Part shown: in pieces, positions 10,126-64,000 of the stretch
How positions within the stretch are numbered: the stretch's first letter is position 1
Layout: each line of letters begins with the position of its first letter
Assembly: GCA_964612065.1 (NCBI GenBank)
Contig: CAZTCD010000006.1
Span: 172 to 64,171, forward strand
DNA length: 64,000 nucleotides
DNA from: an uncultured Bdellovibrionales bacterium
Lineage (GTDB): Bacteria > Bdellovibrionota > UBA1018 > CAIPTA01
Direction of reading: 5' to 3'
The notes under the pieces: model-generated
Databases searched by the model: none
The model's input: only the letters and a program-made list of their open reading frames with translations
What the model was told of the DNA's origin: nothing
Translations under genes and position numbers: made by a program

Positions 10126-10136
10126 TTATTAAGCGG

Positions 10137-10236
10137 TCGCGCTTACCAGCGTGCTGCTGGTTGGGCGCGCTTACCAGCGTGCTGCTGGTTGGTCGCGCTT
10201 ACCAGCGTGCTGCTGGTTGGTCGCGCTTACCAGCGC
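10137..10236. repeat. 28-bp direct tandem repeat (about 3.6 copies) overlapping the 3' end of the RRM-protein gene
   Basis: The unit tcgcgcttaccagcgtgctgctggttgg occurs at 10137-10164, 10165-10192 and 10193-10220, with a partial fourth copy (10221-10236) that contains the gene's last codons and TAA stop. Confidence 0.8.
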
Positions 10237-10592
10237 TCCCTACCACCGCCGCCACGGCCGCCGCGATCACCACGGCCGCCACCGCCGCCGTAACCACCGC
10301 CACCGCCGCCGTAGCCGCCGCCACCGCCGCGGGACTCACGAGGAGCCTGAGGGCGAGCTTCGCTTACATTGAGGGGACGACCGTCCATCACCTGGTTGTT
10401 CAGCTTTTCGATTGCTGCTTCGGCTTCAGCATCAGTGCTCATTTCCACGAATCCAAAGCCTTTGCTGCGGCCGGAATCGCGATCCATGATCACCTTTGCG
10501 GATTCAACGGTTCCACACTGGGAAAAGTGCGCCTGAAGCGCGCTGTCCGTTGCCGAATACGGGAGGTTACCTACATACAGTTTCTTGCCCAC
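10227..10592 (-). CDS. glycine-rich RNA-binding protein (single RRM domain)
   Basis: RNP2 LYVGNL and RNP1 KGFGFVEM are present, followed by a C-terminal GGGGYGGGGGGYGGGGGRGDRGGRGGGG tail. Confidence 0.85.
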   Translation of the reverse strand: MGKKLYVGNLPYSATDSALQAHFSQCGTVESAKVIMDRDSGRSKGFGFVEMSTDAEAEAAIEKLNNQVMDGRPLNVSEARPQAPRESRGGGGGYGGGGGGYGGGGGRGDRGGRGGGGRERW

Positions 10593-23644: not shown

Positions 23645-24805
23645 TCACATAGCCCGGCCGAGGAGGCCAGGTGTTAGCTTCCGGTATCGCTTGTGCACCA
23701 GCTTGAAGATGGTGTCTTCGCTTCCGTTCAGGATGTCTTTCAGCTCGTCGCCTTTAGAGCCGTCGAGGCCGAGGTAAAGCTTCATCTGGTCCCGTGAAAC
23801 TTCGGCTTTGTTGGGATCGGCGCTCTGAGGCGCCAGCGCAATGGCTGCACCCTCTTCCGCGGAAGCCGGGGCGCGATCCACGCTTCCGTTTTCACCGGTA
23901 GCAGGTGTTTTGCCTTCCTCCGCCGGAGTAGGCGAGTTCGCCAGCATCTCGCCGCCCTGGCCGCCTTTGGAGCGGTGCTGATTGAAGAAGTCCGCCGCCT
24001 CCTGGAGCATCTCGGTTTTCTTCGCGAACGAGAACATGGAATGCACTTTCTCCAGCTTGCTCTTGAAGTCGGAGTTCATTTTCTCGGCCTTGAACGCCAG
24101 AAAACGGCGCTCGAGCTTGTTCATCAGGTCGGGATCATCAAAGCTCAGCCGGGCATCCACGATACTGGCTACGTGATTGGCGAAAGTTTCACGGCTCATG
24201 CCGGTTTTCTTTTCGAACTCGGCGGCCACCTCGCCGGTTTCACCGCGATAGAGGAAGCCCTTGTCGCGCTCGCTCCAGCGCCGTTTGGTGATGCTGCTTT
24301 CGCTATTGGTGCTTTTCCCGGAATAGCCGTCGGGCAGCCTCGCGCCTTCTCTTTCGGGGCCGGTAGGATTCACATAGTCTCCGTTCGCCACGGCTCCGCT
24401 GCCGTTTCCGCCCCCGCCACTCACGGAGGTGAGCCCGGCGGAACCCATCTTGCCGCGGCGGTTGTTGGTCATGGCATCGAGGTCGTCCATGTTTTCGGAA
24501 TTGATGTAGTTCCCGTAGCCTTTATAGCCGTAGTGAATCGCGCCCCCGATATCGAGCGAGGCGAGGCGGCTCATCGCCCGCATGCCGTTTCGGTAGCCCT
24601 CGTCTTCGGAGTCGTGAGAGCCGTTGTAGTAGTTGTTGGAGCCGTAGCCCTGGGCATCGGTCTGATTGATCTCTTTGCCGTTGTAATTGTAGTCGCGGGT
24701 GGGCTGGGCGGTCGCGGGCGTGGCAAGAGAAACGGAAAGAGCCAGCGCCCATCCGATCTGCCAGAAATTTCCCCGAGTTTTCGGAGTTTTGCTCCCACTT
24801 CCCAT
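23645..24805 (-). CDS. secreted hypothetical protein, paralog of 48169..49239
   Basis: Signal peptide. Shares EFEKKTG...DP.L and the C-terminal DTIFKLVHKRYRKLTP with the other copy. Confidence 0.45.
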   Translation of the reverse strand: MGSGSKTPKTRGNFWQIGWALALSVSLATPATAQPTRDYNYNGKEINQTDAQGYGSNNYYNGSHDSEDEGYRNGMRAMSRLASLDIGGAIHYGYKGYGNYINSENMDDLDAMTNNRRGKMGSAGLTSVSGGGGNGSGAVANGDYVNPTGPEREGARLPDGYSGKSTNSESSITKRRWSERDKGFLYRGETGEVAAEFEKKTGMSRETFANHVASIVDARLSFDDPDLMNKLERRFLAFKAEKMNSDFKSKLEKVHSMFSFAKKTEMLQEAADFFNQHRSKGGQGGEMLANSPTPAEEGKTPATGENGSVDRAPASAEEGAAIALAPQSADPNKAEVSRDQMKLYLGLDGSKGDELKDILNGSEDTIFKLVHKRYRKLTPGLLGRAM

Positions 24806-24946
24806 AGTTTCCCCTGAGGGGTTTGCTGCAAAAGTGGTTCCTGCCCCCTAAGGGTGCGGAATCACAAGGGGCGGAAAGCGCAAAATTGTAGATCTTTTAG
24901 ACAGCTGTAAAGAGCTTCGGCGCTGTATCGGAAAAGAAAGGGCTTT

Positions 24947-50227: not shown

Positions 50228-50677
50228 ATGGCGAAATCCAAATCGAAGCAGAAATCGAAAAAGGCGGAGCACTATCCCACCTATGTGCAAAAGGTGAAGG
50301 GAAAGGGCTGGGGAGCGTTTTGTCCCAGAAAAATCCCTAAAGGCACGGTGTTCGATGTGACCACGCTTCTCGTGCTCACGGCAAAAGAAGCGAAGCTGAT
50401 GTCGGGCTCTTCGCTCGAACCCTATTGGTATGAGTTCGGCACCAAGGGGAGGGCGATCGCTCTCGGCCTGGGTTCCATCATGAACCACTCCGACAAACCC
50501 AACTGCAGCTATCATTTCTCGAAGAAGCGCCGCACCCTCCGGTTCTTCGCGCTCCAGGACATTCCGCCTAACGAGGAGCTCACCCACGACTACGGCTGGA
50601 CTTCGGCCGCCTATAAGGCCTATGGGATCATCCGTCATCAGGAGCCGAAGAAGAAGAAGCGCCGCAAGCGGCGCTGA
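50228..50677 (+). CDS. SET-domain protein (putative protein-lysine methyltransferase) with Lys-rich tails
   Basis: GKGWGAF is the GxG motif. Together with NHSDKPN (the NHSxxPN pattern) and EELTHDYG (ELxxDY) this makes a canonical SET core. KSKSKQKSKK is at the N-terminus and KKKKRRKRR at the C-terminus. Confidence 0.65.
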   Translation: MAKSKSKQKSKKAEHYPTYVQKVKGKGWGAFCPRKIPKGTVFDVTTLLVLTAKEAKLMSGSSLEPYWYEFGTKGRAIALGLGSIMNHSDKPNCSYHFSKKRRTLRFFALQDIPPNEELTHDYGWTSAAYKAYGIIRHQEPKKKKRRKRR

Positions 50678-59391: not shown

Positions 59392-60558
59392 ATGGCCTAC
59401 AAATGCACCCGGCGGGATTTCCACAAGTGGCTTGGTCTCCTGGCCCTTGAGTTGGCTCTACTGCCCGGCTGCACCAGGCTTCGAAAAGTCACCGGCTTGG
59501 AAGAGGGAAAAGATTTTCGGCTACTGCTGGCTTCGCCCGATGGGAATGTAGGTATCTTCGAAAGCAAAAAGCAAAGCATTTCCACCATCTCTTTGGGCTG
59601 GGCGGGTGCGCATGGTTTTTTATCCTTGGATCGGGGCGCTAGGGCGCTGGTAGTGGGTAAGCATGTGCCTCACCTCGCGGATCTGGAAGTAAAAACCGAT
59701 ACTCCCGTGATCCGCCGAACAGTGAGTCCGTATAAGCCGGGAATGAACTTTTATGGCCATGCAGCCTTTAGCCACCGATATGGCGCTGTGGTCACCTCTG
59801 AAGCGGCCGGTGGCGTGGAGGGGATGCTGGTGATTCGTGATCCCGCAACATTGAAACCGTTGCGGTCGATTTCCTCGCATGGGCGTGACCCGCACGATCT
59901 TGCCATCTTCGATTCCCTGGGGCTGATCATGGTGTGCAACGGTAGGTCGATGGAGAACGGTGTTTCCAATATCGCGATTGTAGAGCTGGAATCGGGCAAG
60001 CTTTTGCATTCGATCGAAGCGGAAGATAAATACGCTTTGTTTGGTCATTTTTCTCCGGCCGGCCCGGCGCAGCTCGTGGCGAGCACCCAAAAGAAGAAAA
60101 TCACCCATCAGAGAAAATTGGAAAGACTCAGAAAGAAAGCAAGGAAAACCAAGGATTATGAGAGGCTCGTCCGATTGCATATGGAAATGGACAAGCTTCA
60201 GAGGCCGGAACCCTCGTTTACGTATGTGGCGGGCGTGGACGGATCTTTGAGTCGTTTGAACGTTGGCGATCATTTTCGCGATTCTATTTCCGGTTTCAGC
60301 GTGTGTACGGAGGGCGGGGTGGCTGCAGTTACGCATGGTCCCACCCAGGGAGTTGCGTTCTATCGTATCTCGGACCAAACCCTGATTTCGTTCAGTAAGA
60401 TCCCTGAAGGCTCTCCCTTGGCGATTTCCGGATTGCCGAACGGAGATTTTCTCTGTGGCACCGGTACAGGTGAGATATGGCGGTTTCCGGCCCCGGCCTT
60501 TGCCTCTCCGGTGCTGGTGGCGCAGGGAATCTCGAGCGAGCATTCGCTTCTTCTTTAG
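59392..60558 (+). CDS. Tat-signal protein, DUF1513-like beta-propeller
   Basis: TRRDFHKWLGLLALELAL is a twin-arginine signal. Length and composition fit DUF1513. Confidence 0.4.
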   Translation: MAYKCTRRDFHKWLGLLALELALLPGCTRLRKVTGLEEGKDFRLLLASPDGNVGIFESKKQSISTISLGWAGAHGFLSLDRGARALVVGKHVPHLADLEVKTDTPVIRRTVSPYKPGMNFYGHAAFSHRYGAVVTSEAAGGVEGMLVIRDPATLKPLRSISSHGRDPHDLAIFDSLGLIMVCNGRSMENGVSNIAIVELESGKLLHSIEAEDKYALFGHFSPAGPAQLVASTQKKKITHQRKLERLRKKARKTKDYERLVRLHMEMDKLQRPEPSFTYVAGVDGSLSRLNVGDHFRDSISGFSVCTEGGVAAVTHGPTQGVAFYRISDQTLISFSKIPEGSPLAISGLPNGDFLCGTGTGEIWRFPAPAFASPVLVAQGISSEHSLLL

Positions 60559-60760
60559 AGATTGCGCTGCGCATTATGTTTTGTCGTCGATAAAACGGTG
60601 TCGTTTTGATTCCGGAACGCAGTGCGAGTGACACCATTTTCTCCGTTCTCCAGGCTTCTACTCTCGAAATTAGGCCAGCAGAGTTGGAACGCTGTTTGCG
60701 TTGGCAGCAGGGCGCGCTTCGTTATCGTTCGTGTTCATCAAATTTTTTTCGGAGGAAGAA

Positions 60761-61408
60761 ATGAAACTCTTGGTTCTGTTCGCTGCCCTGGCCACCACTG
60801 CATCCGCTACCGCTTATGCGAGAGACGTAAACCTGCCAAGCAGGGTTTCGAGAGTATGCGTGGGGAAAACTCAAAACATTCTGCAGAACCGGGTGCAGGT
60901 GAAGCGTTGGTTCGTGAACGGCCGCACCAGCAATCTCAGCACTTTCTATTATCCCGGGCGCTTTGCGAGCTTGAAGCTGGATGTGGACGAAGCCAATGTG
61001 GTGGCGAGCTGCAAAAAGCCGGGCCGTGAGAACTTTCAGTTCCAGTTCCGCCTGAACTACGCGGATCCCAATACCTACAGAGTGATGGTGAGGCTCGATT
61101 GCGTGCCCTGCGCGAAGGCGGGTGCGAAAGAGGCCCGAAAAAAGATCGCTGCCGCACGGCAGCTGGTGAGGGTGGAGCGCCCGGATCCGAGACGGAATCA
61201 GATGGCGATGAAGCAGTTGCAGCTGGCGCATGCGGAGCTTTCCTCTCTGCTCGAGAGTGAAGATCTCTCCCCTCGCAGCCGGGCGGAGCTCAGAAAGCTT
61301 ATGGGGTATTTCGGCCAGCTGATGCAGCTGGTGCGAGAAGGCGCCGGAAGCTCCGGCCAGGCCCAGGAAATCTTCCAGATCCTTGAGAGAGGCCTGGCTC
61401 AGCTTTAA
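60761..61408 (+). CDS. hypothetical secreted protein
   Basis: Signal peptide MKLLVLFAALATTASATA. Confidence 0.3.
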   Translation: MKLLVLFAALATTASATAYARDVNLPSRVSRVCVGKTQNILQNRVQVKRWFVNGRTSNLSTFYYPGRFASLKLDVDEANVVASCKKPGRENFQFQFRLNYADPNTYRVMVRLDCVPCAKAGAKEARKKIAAARQLVRVERPDPRRNQMAMKQLQLAHAELSSLLESEDLSPRSRAELRKLMGYFGQLMQLVREGAGSSGQAQEIFQILERGLAQL

Positions 61409-61740
61409 CGAATTCCGCCGGAGATTCACCCATGACGAAGGCAATCAGCCCCCTGATCCTTGCCCTTGGCCTGCTGGCCGGCTGAAGCTGCGTGCGCTTT
61501 CCGTTTTTTTTCGCGGCGGCGAAAGCATTCATCGTGGGCCCGTAGAAATCGCGGAACAGGTACAGCTGCCTTTGAGCACGAAAGGGAACTGTTGACGAAT
61601 GGTGGGCTTATCCCAGGGCAGGGTGCGGGCGGGCCATTCTGGGCTGCTGTGAAAGGTTCCAGAGTAAAGGTGAGTTTAAGAGATCAGTTCAGCGGGGAAA
61701 ATCAACCGCGGGGCGGAACCCGCTGGCTGAGGCTCATCCG

Positions 61741-63597
61741 CTACATCGAGGAAGAGCCGAGGCCCTGCTGTATTCCCTGTGCCGAGGTAAAGGAGCGGAT
61801 CCTTGTGAGGCGATCCTTTCTCACCGCAGGTGTATTTCGCCCGTCGGCTGTTTCCCATAACGAGCCGGTATGAGGCACATGGGTGGCCAAAGCGTAGCGG
61901 GCCGGATTGTCGCCCACGGGAATACCGTGAAAGATGTTCATTTCGTTGATCCCCACCTGCCATACGTAGGGGAGGTTCTCCCGGAGGAACTCGAGGGTCT
62001 GCTGGAAATCTTCCTCTTCCTCACCGGGGAAGCCCACGATCACGTTCAGGTTCACTTTGATCCCGGCCTCATGGGTGTTTCGAATCACTTCGCGGGCGAT
62101 ATCCACGGTGGTCCGCTTTTCCATCCGGTCCACCACTTTTTGCGATCCCGATTCGAACCCGTAAGAGAGGTACTGGCAGCCCGAGCGGGCCATTCTCTCG
62201 AGGAGCTCCTGGGTCATCCGTTTGTCTACGCGGGCTTGGCCCCGCCAGGTGAGCTTTCGGCCGGAGGCCAGGATCAGGTTCGTGAGCTCGGAGAGCACGT
62301 CGAAGTTGCCGTTCACCAGGGAGTCGTTGAAGCAGATGTGCTCCACGCCGAAGGTGTCGATGAGTTTGAGGATCTGGCGGAAAGCGCGATCGGCAGGGCC
62401 CGAGCGGAACTTCTGCCAGAATCGCGATTCGGAGCAGAACGCGCATCTCGCCACGCAGCCTCGGGAGAGCATCACGGGGAGCGTTTTGGGTTCTTTGTAG
62501 AGGCTGAGATCGAAGTCGCTGAAATCGGGGTCTGGAACCGCCTGGAATGGAAGAGAGGCTCTCGGAGCTTCCGTCACCAGAGTGCTGTCGTGGCGTTTAT
62601 GTACCGTTCCGGCGCAGCCATCGGGCCCGTAGCCATGATTCCAGCGTTTCAGGAGCTCAAGGAGGGTGCCTTCTCCTTCCCCGATGGCCACCACGTTGAT
62701 TTCCGATTCCGGAAGGCGTTCAAGAATGTAAGGGAGGTTTGAGGCTGCCATCTCGGGGCCGCCGCATACGATCTTCAGATTCGGCAGGCGGGCGCGGCAG
62801 GCACGGGCCACGGCATTCAGGCAGGGCAGGGAGGTGTAGAAGGCGGTGAAGCCGAGCACGGCCGGCTGTGCGGAGCAGATCTGGTTGGCGAGGTTCTCTA
62901 TGGCTTCGCGGAGCTGGGGCAGGATTTCGGCCTCGAAGAGCTCCGCCTCGCGAAAGTAGCGGGCATTGGTGTGCGACCATATATCCTCGCCCCCGATGCG
63001 AAGATTGCGCAGCACGTGCCAGGCGGCGATATTGAAATCGTGCACGGAGGCTTCGATGCCTTCGGCCCGGAGCGCTGCTGCCAGATAGGAAATTCCCATG
63101 GGCGGGAAGCTCGGGTCCCAGGCCGGAAGCGCCACGAGGGCCGTGCGCACCTGGGTGCGAGCCTCCGGCGTGAACTCGCCCGGAGATTCGAGGGGCACGG
63201 CATTCAGCTTCTCGATGGAAAAGGAAAGCTGCGGATCCGCGGGATGAGGGAGCACGCCCTCTTTTCGGTTAAAGCGGAATTCGAGGGTGCGGAGCTCTTC
63301 GGTGCCGGACTCGGGTAGCTCGAAGTATCCTTCGAGGCGGCGGTTGGCTTCCGTGGCCTCGAGCAACAGGCAGGTTTTTTCTCCCTGGCGCAACTCCACG
63401 GTGGTGCCAGCCACGGGAACGAAGAGGCGGTAATAGATTCGAAGGCGGCGGGATGGATTCCGGAAAGAAATCTGCTGCCGTTCTCCGAGCGCCCAACGCC
63501 ACGCCCGCCCACTTTCGCCCTCGATCGGGCGAAAGCCTGCGGTGGTGATTGAGGGATTCTCGTGAAGCGCCAGCTCCCATTCTGCTGCCATGGCCAA
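61741..63597 (-). CDS. B12-binding (class B) radical SAM protein with about 150-aa N-terminal extension
   Basis: FPPMGISYLAAALRAEG is the B12-binding domain. MLSRGCVARCAFC is CxxxCxxC, the radical-SAM 4Fe-4S site. Confidence 0.75.
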   Translation of the reverse strand: MAMAAEWELALHENPSITTAGFRPIEGESGRAWRWALGERQQISFRNPSRRLRIYYRLFVPVAGTTVELRQGEKTCLLLEATEANRRLEGYFELPESGTEELRTLEFRFNRKEGVLPHPADPQLSFSIEKLNAVPLESPGEFTPEARTQVRTALVALPAWDPSFPPMGISYLAAALRAEGIEASVHDFNIAAWHVLRNLRIGGEDIWSHTNARYFREAELFEAEILPQLREAIENLANQICSAQPAVLGFTAFYTSLPCLNAVARACRARLPNLKIVCGGPEMAASNLPYILERLPESEINVVAIGEGEGTLLELLKRWNHGYGPDGCAGTVHKRHDSTLVTEAPRASLPFQAVPDPDFSDFDLSLYKEPKTLPVMLSRGCVARCAFCSESRFWQKFRSGPADRAFRQILKLIDTFGVEHICFNDSLVNGNFDVLSELTNLILASGRKLTWRGQARVDKRMTQELLERMARSGCQYLSYGFESGSQKVVDRMEKRTTVDIAREVIRNTHEAGIKVNLNVIVGFPGEEEEDFQQTLEFLRENLPYVWQVGINEMNIFHGIPVGDNPARYALATHVPHTGSLWETADGRNTPAVRKDRLTRIRSFTSAQGIQQGLGSSSM

Positions 63598-63784
63598 AAC
63601 GATAGCCCGGAAGCTCGGCTGGCCACAGGGAATTTCATTTGACTGGGGGTGGTGCGGCGCGTCCGTCGGTGCGTGGTGGAAACAAATTTAATTTATTGGT
63701 GGAGGAGGGGGCATTTCTTGGCCTCCCCCAAAACGTTTAAAGCCTGCCCCGCCCTGTGGTTGTAGGGGGCCTCCTTTATGCTCA

Positions 63785-63952
63785 AATCGCCCAAAAGCCC
63801 CGGATTTGCTTAAAAATGGCCAAAAAACCCATATTTATCTAAAAAAATGCTAAAAACTCCAGAATTTATTTAAAAATAGCCAAAAATCACACTATATTTA
63901 ATTTAATGGCCAAAAAACCCAGAAATAGATCAAGGAAATTGCCAGAAAGCCC
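63785..63952. repeat. AT-rich array of six degenerate direct repeats phased at about 30 bp (consensus aAAtgGCCaAAAAaCCC)
   Basis: Copies start at about 63785, 63814, 63843, 63873, 63903 and 63936, and each has two A-tracts around a G/C core. It lies 190-355 bp upstream of the radical SAM start in an otherwise roughly 60% GC context. Confidence 0.6.
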
Positions 63953-64000
63953 AGAGCCGCTTCCTCCGCTTCTTTTTCCTCCAGAAGACAGAAGTCAGGA

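Follow-up and report, generated by a model that had tools for sequence, protein, structure and literature searches.

A phased direct-repeat array with predicted curvature at the putative promoter and 5′ end of an AbiEi-like/Fic gene

Close to the end of a 64-kb stretch of bacterial DNA, which was analysed as a whole and is called the window here, an AT-rich set of short repeats lies next to a B12-binding radical SAM gene. The question raised by this locus is what the repeats are for, and to which gene they belong. An earlier reading made from the letters alone (the sequence-only reading) took them for a site array of an oligomerising regulator, or a nucleation site for a nucleoid protein, placed upstream of the radical SAM gene. 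Our analysis points instead to the gene on the other side, which runs out of the window. The explanation that we put first, tentatively and at a little under an even chance, is that the array is a predicted multi-site, pre-bent promoter-operator together with the 5′ end of an AbiEi-like/Fic gene.

The six repeats with a period of about 30 bp that had been described from the letters were recovered where they had been placed, both by a repeat search of the 64-kb window and by TRF (period 30, 3.7 copies, score 86). They are head-to-tail copies of one unit, and so form a tandem repeat, with unit-to-unit spacings of 30, 30, 30, 30 and 32 bp; units 1, 2, 4, 5 and 6 came from the repeat search as copies, while unit 3 was added by a 48-nt family at 30-bp spacing (Table 1). 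With up to three mismatches AAATGGCCAAAAAACCC has five matches against 0.24 expected, a number that none of 100 shuffles reaches, and within the 64-kb window these matches are confined to the array. The same is true of a 12-nt core position weight matrix (PWM), for which all hits in the window above 14.5 bits fall in the array. The array is also the sharp AT island that it was said to be, having a GC content of 26–28% in 100-bp windows against 54–60% across the window in 4-kb blocks, although the surrounding GC content, given earlier as roughly 60%, is corrected to about 58% for the window. The strongest tandem repeat of the window is found elsewhere, at 10135–10330, where a near-perfect 28-bp unit is present in 3.6 copies with 97% matches and is followed by a CCG/CCACCGCCG-type tract with periods of 3, 9, 21, 24 and 27.

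Each unit is made up of a conserved core and a spacer. The core, aAAtnGCcaaAAAnccCa, is 18 nt long and has a mean pair identity of 0.76, while the other 12 columns, which form the AT-rich spacer, have a pair identity of 0.34 against the 0.31 expected from base composition. The conserved columns are clustered within the unit (p=0.0016, column permutation). Positions G9, C10 and C20 are invariant, which places G/C flanks, and not A-tracts alone, among the best-conserved positions of the unit. The combination of a conserved core, saturated spacers and a pitch that has been kept fits a selected array of binding sites, and not a young uniform or neutral duplication. All six units are direct; an inverted-repeat search of the array gave no inverted repeats, and the sole palindrome in the units is the 6-nt TGGCCA of units 2 and 5. 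The array is not a CRISPR, given cores that are only about 76% alike, spacers that are short and AT-rich, and an overlap with both a promoter and an open reading frame. Rfam at the gathering threshold gave no match anywhere in the 64-kb window, which likewise yielded no tRNA or tmRNA, and the array and its vicinity gave no terminator. A reading of the repeats as mini-ORFs or peptides, in which units 2 and 3 would encode MAKKPIFI and MLKTPEFI, each followed by a stop codon, was rejected as these are not conserved in L022, a contig of a closely related strain.

The array is periodic on a finer scale as well. Each unit has three A/T-tracts phased at 10 bp, giving about 15 tracts in all, and the 30-bp pitch corresponds to three helical turns, so that all of the cores are on the same face of the DNA. 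The power of AA dinucleotides at a period of 10.0 bp is 4.98, compared with 0.25 ± 0.26 in shuffled sequence, and none of 1000 shuffles reaches 4.98; the array is the top-ranked segment of the 64-kb window for 10-bp AA periodicity. The A-tracts are not restricted to the region upstream of the −35 element, but are also found across the core promoter and in the coding sequence. Using a wedge model with Bolshoy-type parameters, the ratio of end-to-end distance to contour length is predicted to be 0.60 for the array, where the window as a whole averages 0.953 (sd 0.036). No other 150-bp segment of the 64 kb is predicted to be as curved, and none of 500 composition-matched shuffles equals it. Tracts repeated about once per turn and a predicted curvature well above background are what is expected of phased A-tract curved DNA, and the DNA of the array is predicted to be intrinsically bent. 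On these points, namely same-face phasing, paired A-tracts and intrinsic curvature, the sequence-only reading has held up. Second in curvature within the window is 24720–24900 (ratio about 0.64), where T-tracts in phase (aaattt..gagtttt..agtttt..tagttt..ggttt) lie at and upstream of the 5′ end of a minus-strand ORF, 23645–24805; this segment was rejected as another copy of the array, its sequence being unrelated.

Table 1. Features at the repeat array and its surroundings, in window positions.
Feature	Start	End	Strand	Description
B12-binding radical SAM gene	61741	63591	−	divergent neighbour; nothing ties the gene to the array
Non-repetitive intergenic part	63592	63783		55–58% GC; contains ATTTAATTTATTGG at 63686–63699
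Repeat unit 1	63784	63813	+	AAATCGCCCAAAAGCCCCGGATTTGCTTAA; GC-richer distal unit
Repeat unit 2	63814	63843	+	core AATGGCCAAAAAACCCA, same as the core of unit 5
Repeat unit 3	63844	63873	+	tail holds the −35-like hexamer TTTAAA (63869–63874)
Sigma70-like promoter	63869	63898	+	TTTAAA-18-TATATT; −10 ends 7 nt before the ATG
Repeat unit 4	63874	63903	+	core (63879–63890) in the promoter spacer; tail with the −10-like TATATT (63893–63898)
Repeat unit 5	63904	63935	+	32 bp; holds ATG 63906; core is codons 2–5 (AKKP)
AbiEi-like N-domain/Fic gene, 5′ end (31 codons)	63906	64000	+	runs off the window end
Repeat unit 6	63936	63952	+	core only; codons 11–16 (KLPESP); the periodic signal stops there

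Counted from the ATG at 63906, the array reaches from −122 to +47. The sole sigma70-like match between 63400 and 64000 lies within units 3–4 and is aimed at the Fic gene, as scored against a sigma70 consensus that may not apply to the host lineage. In L022 this promoter is conserved and is stronger (TTGAAA-18-TATATT, 10/12). There is no Shine-Dalgarno sequence before ATG 63906, and the mRNA of the Fic gene would be leaderless or near-leaderless, starting at about the ATG. The view that the array was something other than a simple promoter was not borne out, since a sigma70-like promoter lies inside it. The sequence-only reading had also named, as evidence against its own proposal, an array that runs on past the window end into coding DNA, and this is in part what is seen: units 5–6 are codons 1–16 of the gene that leaves the window.

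The open reading frame that begins at this ATG continues to the window end, 48 bp after the array, and in L022, which extends 176 bp past the window end, it is open for at least 100 codons. The homologs P0075 and P0142 start with MAKK/MADKK, which supports ATG 63906 as the gene start, and have a similar basic tail of about 18–20 amino acids that is followed in close homologs by an invariant LPPLLFP...KIRKIGPRLYT motif. More distant homologs are full-length, at about 490 amino acids, and end in an SxxxEG inhibitory-helix-like motif (FFEAYFSNFIEGTEF) and a Fic domain with HPFxDGNGRxAR. No Pfam or NCBIfam model matches the N-terminal ~170 amino acids of the family. Against the PADLOC AbiEi HMMs, P0076 gave E values of 6.4e-8, 6.4e-7 and 6.2e-6 with the match starting at profile position 23, and the C-terminal half matches the PADLOC SoFic/PDC-S04 Fic defence candidates at about 1e-16. 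The ORF in L022, the homologs and these PADLOC matches together identify the gene leaving the window, by similarity, as an AbiEi-like/Fic fusion that is divergent from the radical SAM gene. In structural comparisons the top Foldseek match of the N-domain in the PDB is AbiEi (6y8q), which is a weak match (E=0.07, TM 0.28), and a sequence search of the PDB with the family protein gave no match. The AF2 model (pLDDT 86.6) has one helix and a beta-hairpin, compared with the three-helix winged helix-turn-helix of AbiEi, and the DNA-binding module of the encoded protein may be truncated relative to AbiEi.

This family has more than 200 members in metagenomes, most of them annotated as hypothetical, and a scan of viral contigs found no relatives. 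Many members are broken. In L026/L027 (L026:2100–2676) the gene is split into a 110-aa N-fragment and an 85-aa Fic C-terminal fragment, in L025 (508–1944) into proteins of 172 aa and 294 aa, the latter a Fic protein, and at the P0171 loci, L045 (521–1489) and L046, the genes are truncated at the 5′ end and have no native start region. These decayed or split members suggest the frequent inactivation of a costly or toxic gene. A 72-aa N-terminal fragment in L028–L030 (L028:4233–6340) is followed by an AAA_14/DUF4143 ATPase gene with no Fic domain and has a BrnT toxin gene just upstream, a context that looks like a defence or toxin-antitoxin island with module shuffling.

The DNA between the array and the radical SAM gene, and the radical SAM gene itself, have features of their own. 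ATTTAATTTATTGG, in that half of the intergenic DNA which is GC-rich and lies closer to the radical SAM gene, is conserved in L022 and matches ATTTAATTTAATGG (63896–63909) at 13 of 14 positions from a distance of 210 bp. ATTTAATTTAATGG is the −10-to-ATG segment of the Fic gene, and ATTTAATTTATTGG could be a second promoter or a binding element for the divergent gene. The full radical SAM protein is covered by just its four closest homologs (52–98% identity), nearly all others covering no more than about 75% of it, and genomic tblastn matches to this protein begin near residue 140; the enzyme appears to have an N-terminal extension of about 140–150 amino acids that is specific to a small clade.

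The 12-nt core PWM, which was built from the window alone, was tested from −130 to +60 on the coding strand of homologs of the Fic gene in other lineages. Compared with other windows of the same locus, the p values are 0.0012 for L025, 0.0007 for L026, 0.0034 for L043, 0.011 for L044 and 1 for L028, which combine by Fisher's method to 5e-7. Compared with composition-matched (dinucleotide) shuffles, in a test designed after the data had been seen, they are 0.12, 0.019, 0.001, 0.41 and 1 for L025, L026, L043, L044 and L028 respectively, and combine to 0.002, or to 0.083 when the related L026 and L043 are counted once. A 20-nt PWM of the whole unit showed no enrichment upstream of homologs. Taken together, these scores are no more than suggestive of a core motif shared across lineages.

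Periodicity and curvature can be followed without reference to the motif. The clearest case is L044, from a genome of 67% GC, in which four 22-nt direct repeats spaced by 30, 31 and 31 bp stand directly upstream of a homolog whose N-domain is 47% identical, within an A-skewed island of 39–41% GC. The conserved core of these repeats, CTACCTAGAAACGAT, is largely not A-tract, and the invariant positions CC-N-A-N-AAA-C align between the cores of L044 and of the window. When loci were compared with themselves by a motif-free method, L044 and L026, each with lag 31 and z about 5.5, and L035 (lag 77) had their locus-wide top peak at the gene start; this was not so in L025, L028, L032, L038 or L041, and L025, L028, L032 and L038 have no periodic array. 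The gene start is the most curved 120-bp segment of its locus in L044 (1/900), L026 (1/361), L022 (1/651), L035 (1/807) and L043 (1/81), and ranks 6/243 in L025, but such ranks against whole loci overstate significance, as promoters are generally AT-rich and curved. We consider it better supported by these comparisons that an architecture of repeats and predicted curvature recurs with the Fic-family gene, and do not claim a robustly shared motif. A distant clade of the AbiEi-like/Fic family has a different set of repeats upstream: at L035:3734–3901, and at the same positions in L037, L040 and L041, there are three direct copies of TTAT-N7-ATTCCTGC at spacings of 77 and 72 bp. TTAT and ATTCCTGC are invariant in all copies at the four loci while the DNA between and around them drifts, and these repeats resemble a conserved cis-element whose motif and pitch are not those of the array.

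A much closer comparison is possible with two Logan contigs, L022 and L023, from a closely related strain in which the radical SAM protein (P0001) is 98% identical. The lineage is also present in the sequencing runs DRR438490 and DRR438491. Pairwise alignment shows that L022 has five units where the window has six, the two differing by one clean 30-bp indel; the 30 bp absent from L022 correspond to about 63829–63858. The array thus varies in copy number between close relatives in the manner of a VNTR. Between the window and L022 the divergence at fourfold-degenerate sites is 7.9% for the radical SAM gene and 1.5% for the DUF1513 gene; for intergenic DNA outside the array it is 13.6%. Array units 1–4 differ by 9.8%, and codons 1–18 of the Fic gene by 11.1% with five amino-acid changes, whereas codons 19–31 are identical. 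Purifying selection on the array is not detectable between these two strains, given 9.8–11.1% against 7.9% at the fourfold sites of the radical SAM gene, although the counts are small. Across 59392–64000 the divergence from L022 climbs steeply toward the Fic gene, which could reflect a recombination boundary or a hypervariable region beside that gene. L023 (1–60) stops inside the array, and L022 (1–300) some 240 bp past it. Short-read assembly probably fails at the AT-rich repeat, and this may be why protein databases have no Fic gene from this lineage.

Several other explanations of the array have to be weighed against an operator of the Fic gene. The one implied by the sequence-only reading is an upstream activating or regulatory array for the radical SAM gene, acting on a divergent promoter from a distance of 190–360 bp. 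The distance itself was given correctly, the array lying 193–361 bp from the radical SAM ATG at 63591, and the two genes share one divergent intergenic region, across which bent DNA can aid looping to a distant promoter. Position is however all that speaks for this explanation, and the claim that the array serves the radical SAM gene is not upheld, as the array overlaps the promoter, the start and codons 1–16 of the Fic gene. No minus-strand promoter-like site was found near the array, and the 12-nt core PWM found the motif and array absent upstream of radical SAM homologs, including a 52%-identical one that has a different upstream neighbour. The nearest named relative of the protein, at 52% identity, is from an Oligoflexia MAG, and a scan of a genome collection with the protein gave identities of 32% or less. 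As the architecture instead tracks the Fic-family gene, a role for the radical SAM gene is quite unlikely, and that gene is probably a bystander. A stronger competitor, though still one we regard as somewhat unlikely, is that only the shape of the DNA matters, the array being a promoter element or nucleoid-protein target that the product of the gene itself does not bind. It might then be an upstream curved-DNA or UP-like activator, a promoter sensitive to supercoiling or temperature, or a nucleation site for silencers of the H-NS/MvaT/Lsr2 type. The strength of the 10-bp A-tract phasing, the top-ranked curvature, and the sharp AT island in GC-rich DNA, seen both here and in L044, favour this, as do a gene-start curvature common even to the L035 clade despite its other motif and spacing, and a winged helix-turn-helix that looks truncated in the model of the encoded protein. 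Curved DNA with UP-element-like A-tracts is known upstream of promoters, as in the plc gene of Clostridium perfringens, where A5–6 tracts are phased per helical turn beside the −35; such curved elements consist of about three tracts, and a repeated core of specific sequence is not known from them. The array resembles them in having A/T-tracts phased at the helical turn and a predicted static bend, and differs in having about 15 tracts in six 30-bp units with G/C-flanked cores that pass through the promoter into the ORF. A purely shape-based element also sits less well with the invariant G9, C10 and C20, with spacers that are at random identity while the pitch is kept, and with an L044 core that is mostly not A-tract.

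The variation in unit number raises a different possibility, which is that the array is a neutral minisatellite in which slippage or unequal recombination duplicated the gene start (−10, ATG and first codons) and the copies are now decaying. The clean loss or gain of one 30-bp unit between 98%-related strains is what such a process would give, and the 17-nt core of unit 2, ATG included, is identical to that of unit 5. Strain divergence within the array that is no lower than at synonymous sites, five amino-acid changes in codons 1–18, and the fact that both Logan contigs break at or shortly past the array all agree with it. Against this, the 18-nt core is conserved next to spacers at random level whose length has been kept (p=0.0016), and arrays of 30–31 bp with predicted curvature recur at homologous genes whose proteins are only about 47–56% identical; we therefore judge a neutral origin unlikely. 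Finally, directly repeated cores at a fixed spacing and helical phase in AT-rich, bent DNA recall the iterons of R6K, RK2, P1 and the lambda origin, which have a pitch of about 22 bp and bind an oligomerising protein encoded next door. The likeness is one of architecture only. A scan of 14 proteins of the window found no Rep or Par domains, their functions look chromosomal, and the genes that flank the array are those for the radical SAM and AbiEi-Fic proteins; the nearest DnaA box (TTWTNCACA) is at 50284, about 13.5 kb away, GC skew is positive throughout the window with no change of sign, neither a DUE nor a replicon context is present, and a pitch of 30 bp exceeds what is typical. It is thus extremely improbable that the repeats are iterons for replication from an origin of a plasmid, a chromosome or an integrated element, and we rejected this reading for want of Rep/Par genes, a nearby DnaA box and a skew switch. 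Of the earlier proposal the iteron form falls away, while a site array for an oligomerising protein is still the best reading.

Known systems with related proteins give some idea of how an operator of this kind might work. AbiEi is described as a monomeric winged-helix antitoxin (PMC7319586, which cites Hampton et al. 2018). It recognises a pair of 23-bp inverted repeats in the promoter of its own gene, where it bends the DNA and represses transcription. In Mycobacterium tuberculosis the homolog Rv2827c occupies four 23-bp repeats arranged in tandem between −1 and −131 (PMC7319586). The array is like these operators in having several repeats of about 23–30 bp within about −130 of the start, over the predicted promoter of a gene with an AbiEi-like domain. 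In the known systems one monomer binds each repeat, the DNA is bent and autoregulation is negative; binding to the array is a prediction. There are also clear differences. The AbiEi and Rv2827c sites are inverted with gaps of 3–13 bp, while the ~23-bp inverted repeats of an AbiEi operator are absent from the array, whose six units are all direct at a strict 30-bp pitch. Here the curvature is predicted to be independent of protein, the repeats continue into the first 16 codons, and the winged helix-turn-helix looks truncated in the AF2 model. The partner of AbiE is a separate DUF1814 nucleotidyltransferase toxin, in place of which there is here a fused Fic domain. For the Fic part, CccR, a class II Fic protein, acts as a repressor of its own promoter by way of inverted repeats at −35/−10 (PMC9755527). 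Like CccR, the product of our gene would be a Fic protein with its own (here predicted) DNA-binding domain and with repeats at the −35/−10 of its own gene, and the SxxxEG inhibitory helix motif is common to CccR and the full-length homologs. The helix-turn-helix of CccR is however C-terminal, and its operator is one inverted-repeat pair, AGATAATCAT-N26-ATGATAATCT, with no tandem array or A-tract phasing. SoFic is reported to be a Fic protein that defends by abortive infection (PMC12249575). In the literature searched we found no fusion of an AbiEi-like domain to Fic whose control region is made of direct repeats with phasing and curvature.

On the basis of these analogies the Fic gene is probably autoregulated by its own product. 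From the conservation of the cores we infer that a protein binds them, and the start of transcription, the identity of the binder and repression of the Fic gene are likewise put forward here as expectations of the model. The core of unit 4 would sit in the promoter spacer, that of unit 5 just past the predicted start and that of unit 6 another 30 bp further on; a core in the spacer and a core after the start are classic positions for a repressor. Several copies of a DNA-binding protein would fill the cores cooperatively along one face of the pre-bent DNA, and the bound protein would occlude RNA polymerase at units 4–5 and so repress the toxin-like gene, with units 1–3 adding cooperativity or wrapping. 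The best candidate for the binder would be the protein that the gene itself encodes, which would act by way of its AbiEi-like N-domain and its basic, disordered tail. When whole 30-bp units are gained or lost, as in the six and five units of the two strains, the phase would be kept and the system retuned. A more far-reaching version, which we think very unlikely, has the DNA as a scaffold on which the AbiEi-like/Fic protein polymerises along one pre-bent face, keeping the (AMPylating) Fic toxin domain inactive until a change in topology or occupancy under phage or stress releases it. If true, it would be a single-polypeptide, DNA-gated toxin-antitoxin or defence module with a set-point tuned by the number of 30-bp units.

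The promoter-operator explanation has consequences of its own. At the level of annotation it corrects the logic of the locus, in that the array probably belongs with the Fic gene. If it is true, there would be an undescribed family in which an AbiEi-like N-domain is fused to a class-II-like Fic domain, and whose control region is a series of direct repeats at a three-turn pitch on intrinsically bent DNA with a copy number that varies between strains. The inverted-repeat operator logic of autoregulated toxin-antitoxin and abortive-infection modules would then extend to an iteron-like architecture, and one protein and 170 bp of DNA would make a compact system in which to see how the shape of the DNA and the number of sites govern how strongly a potentially toxic Fic enzyme is expressed.
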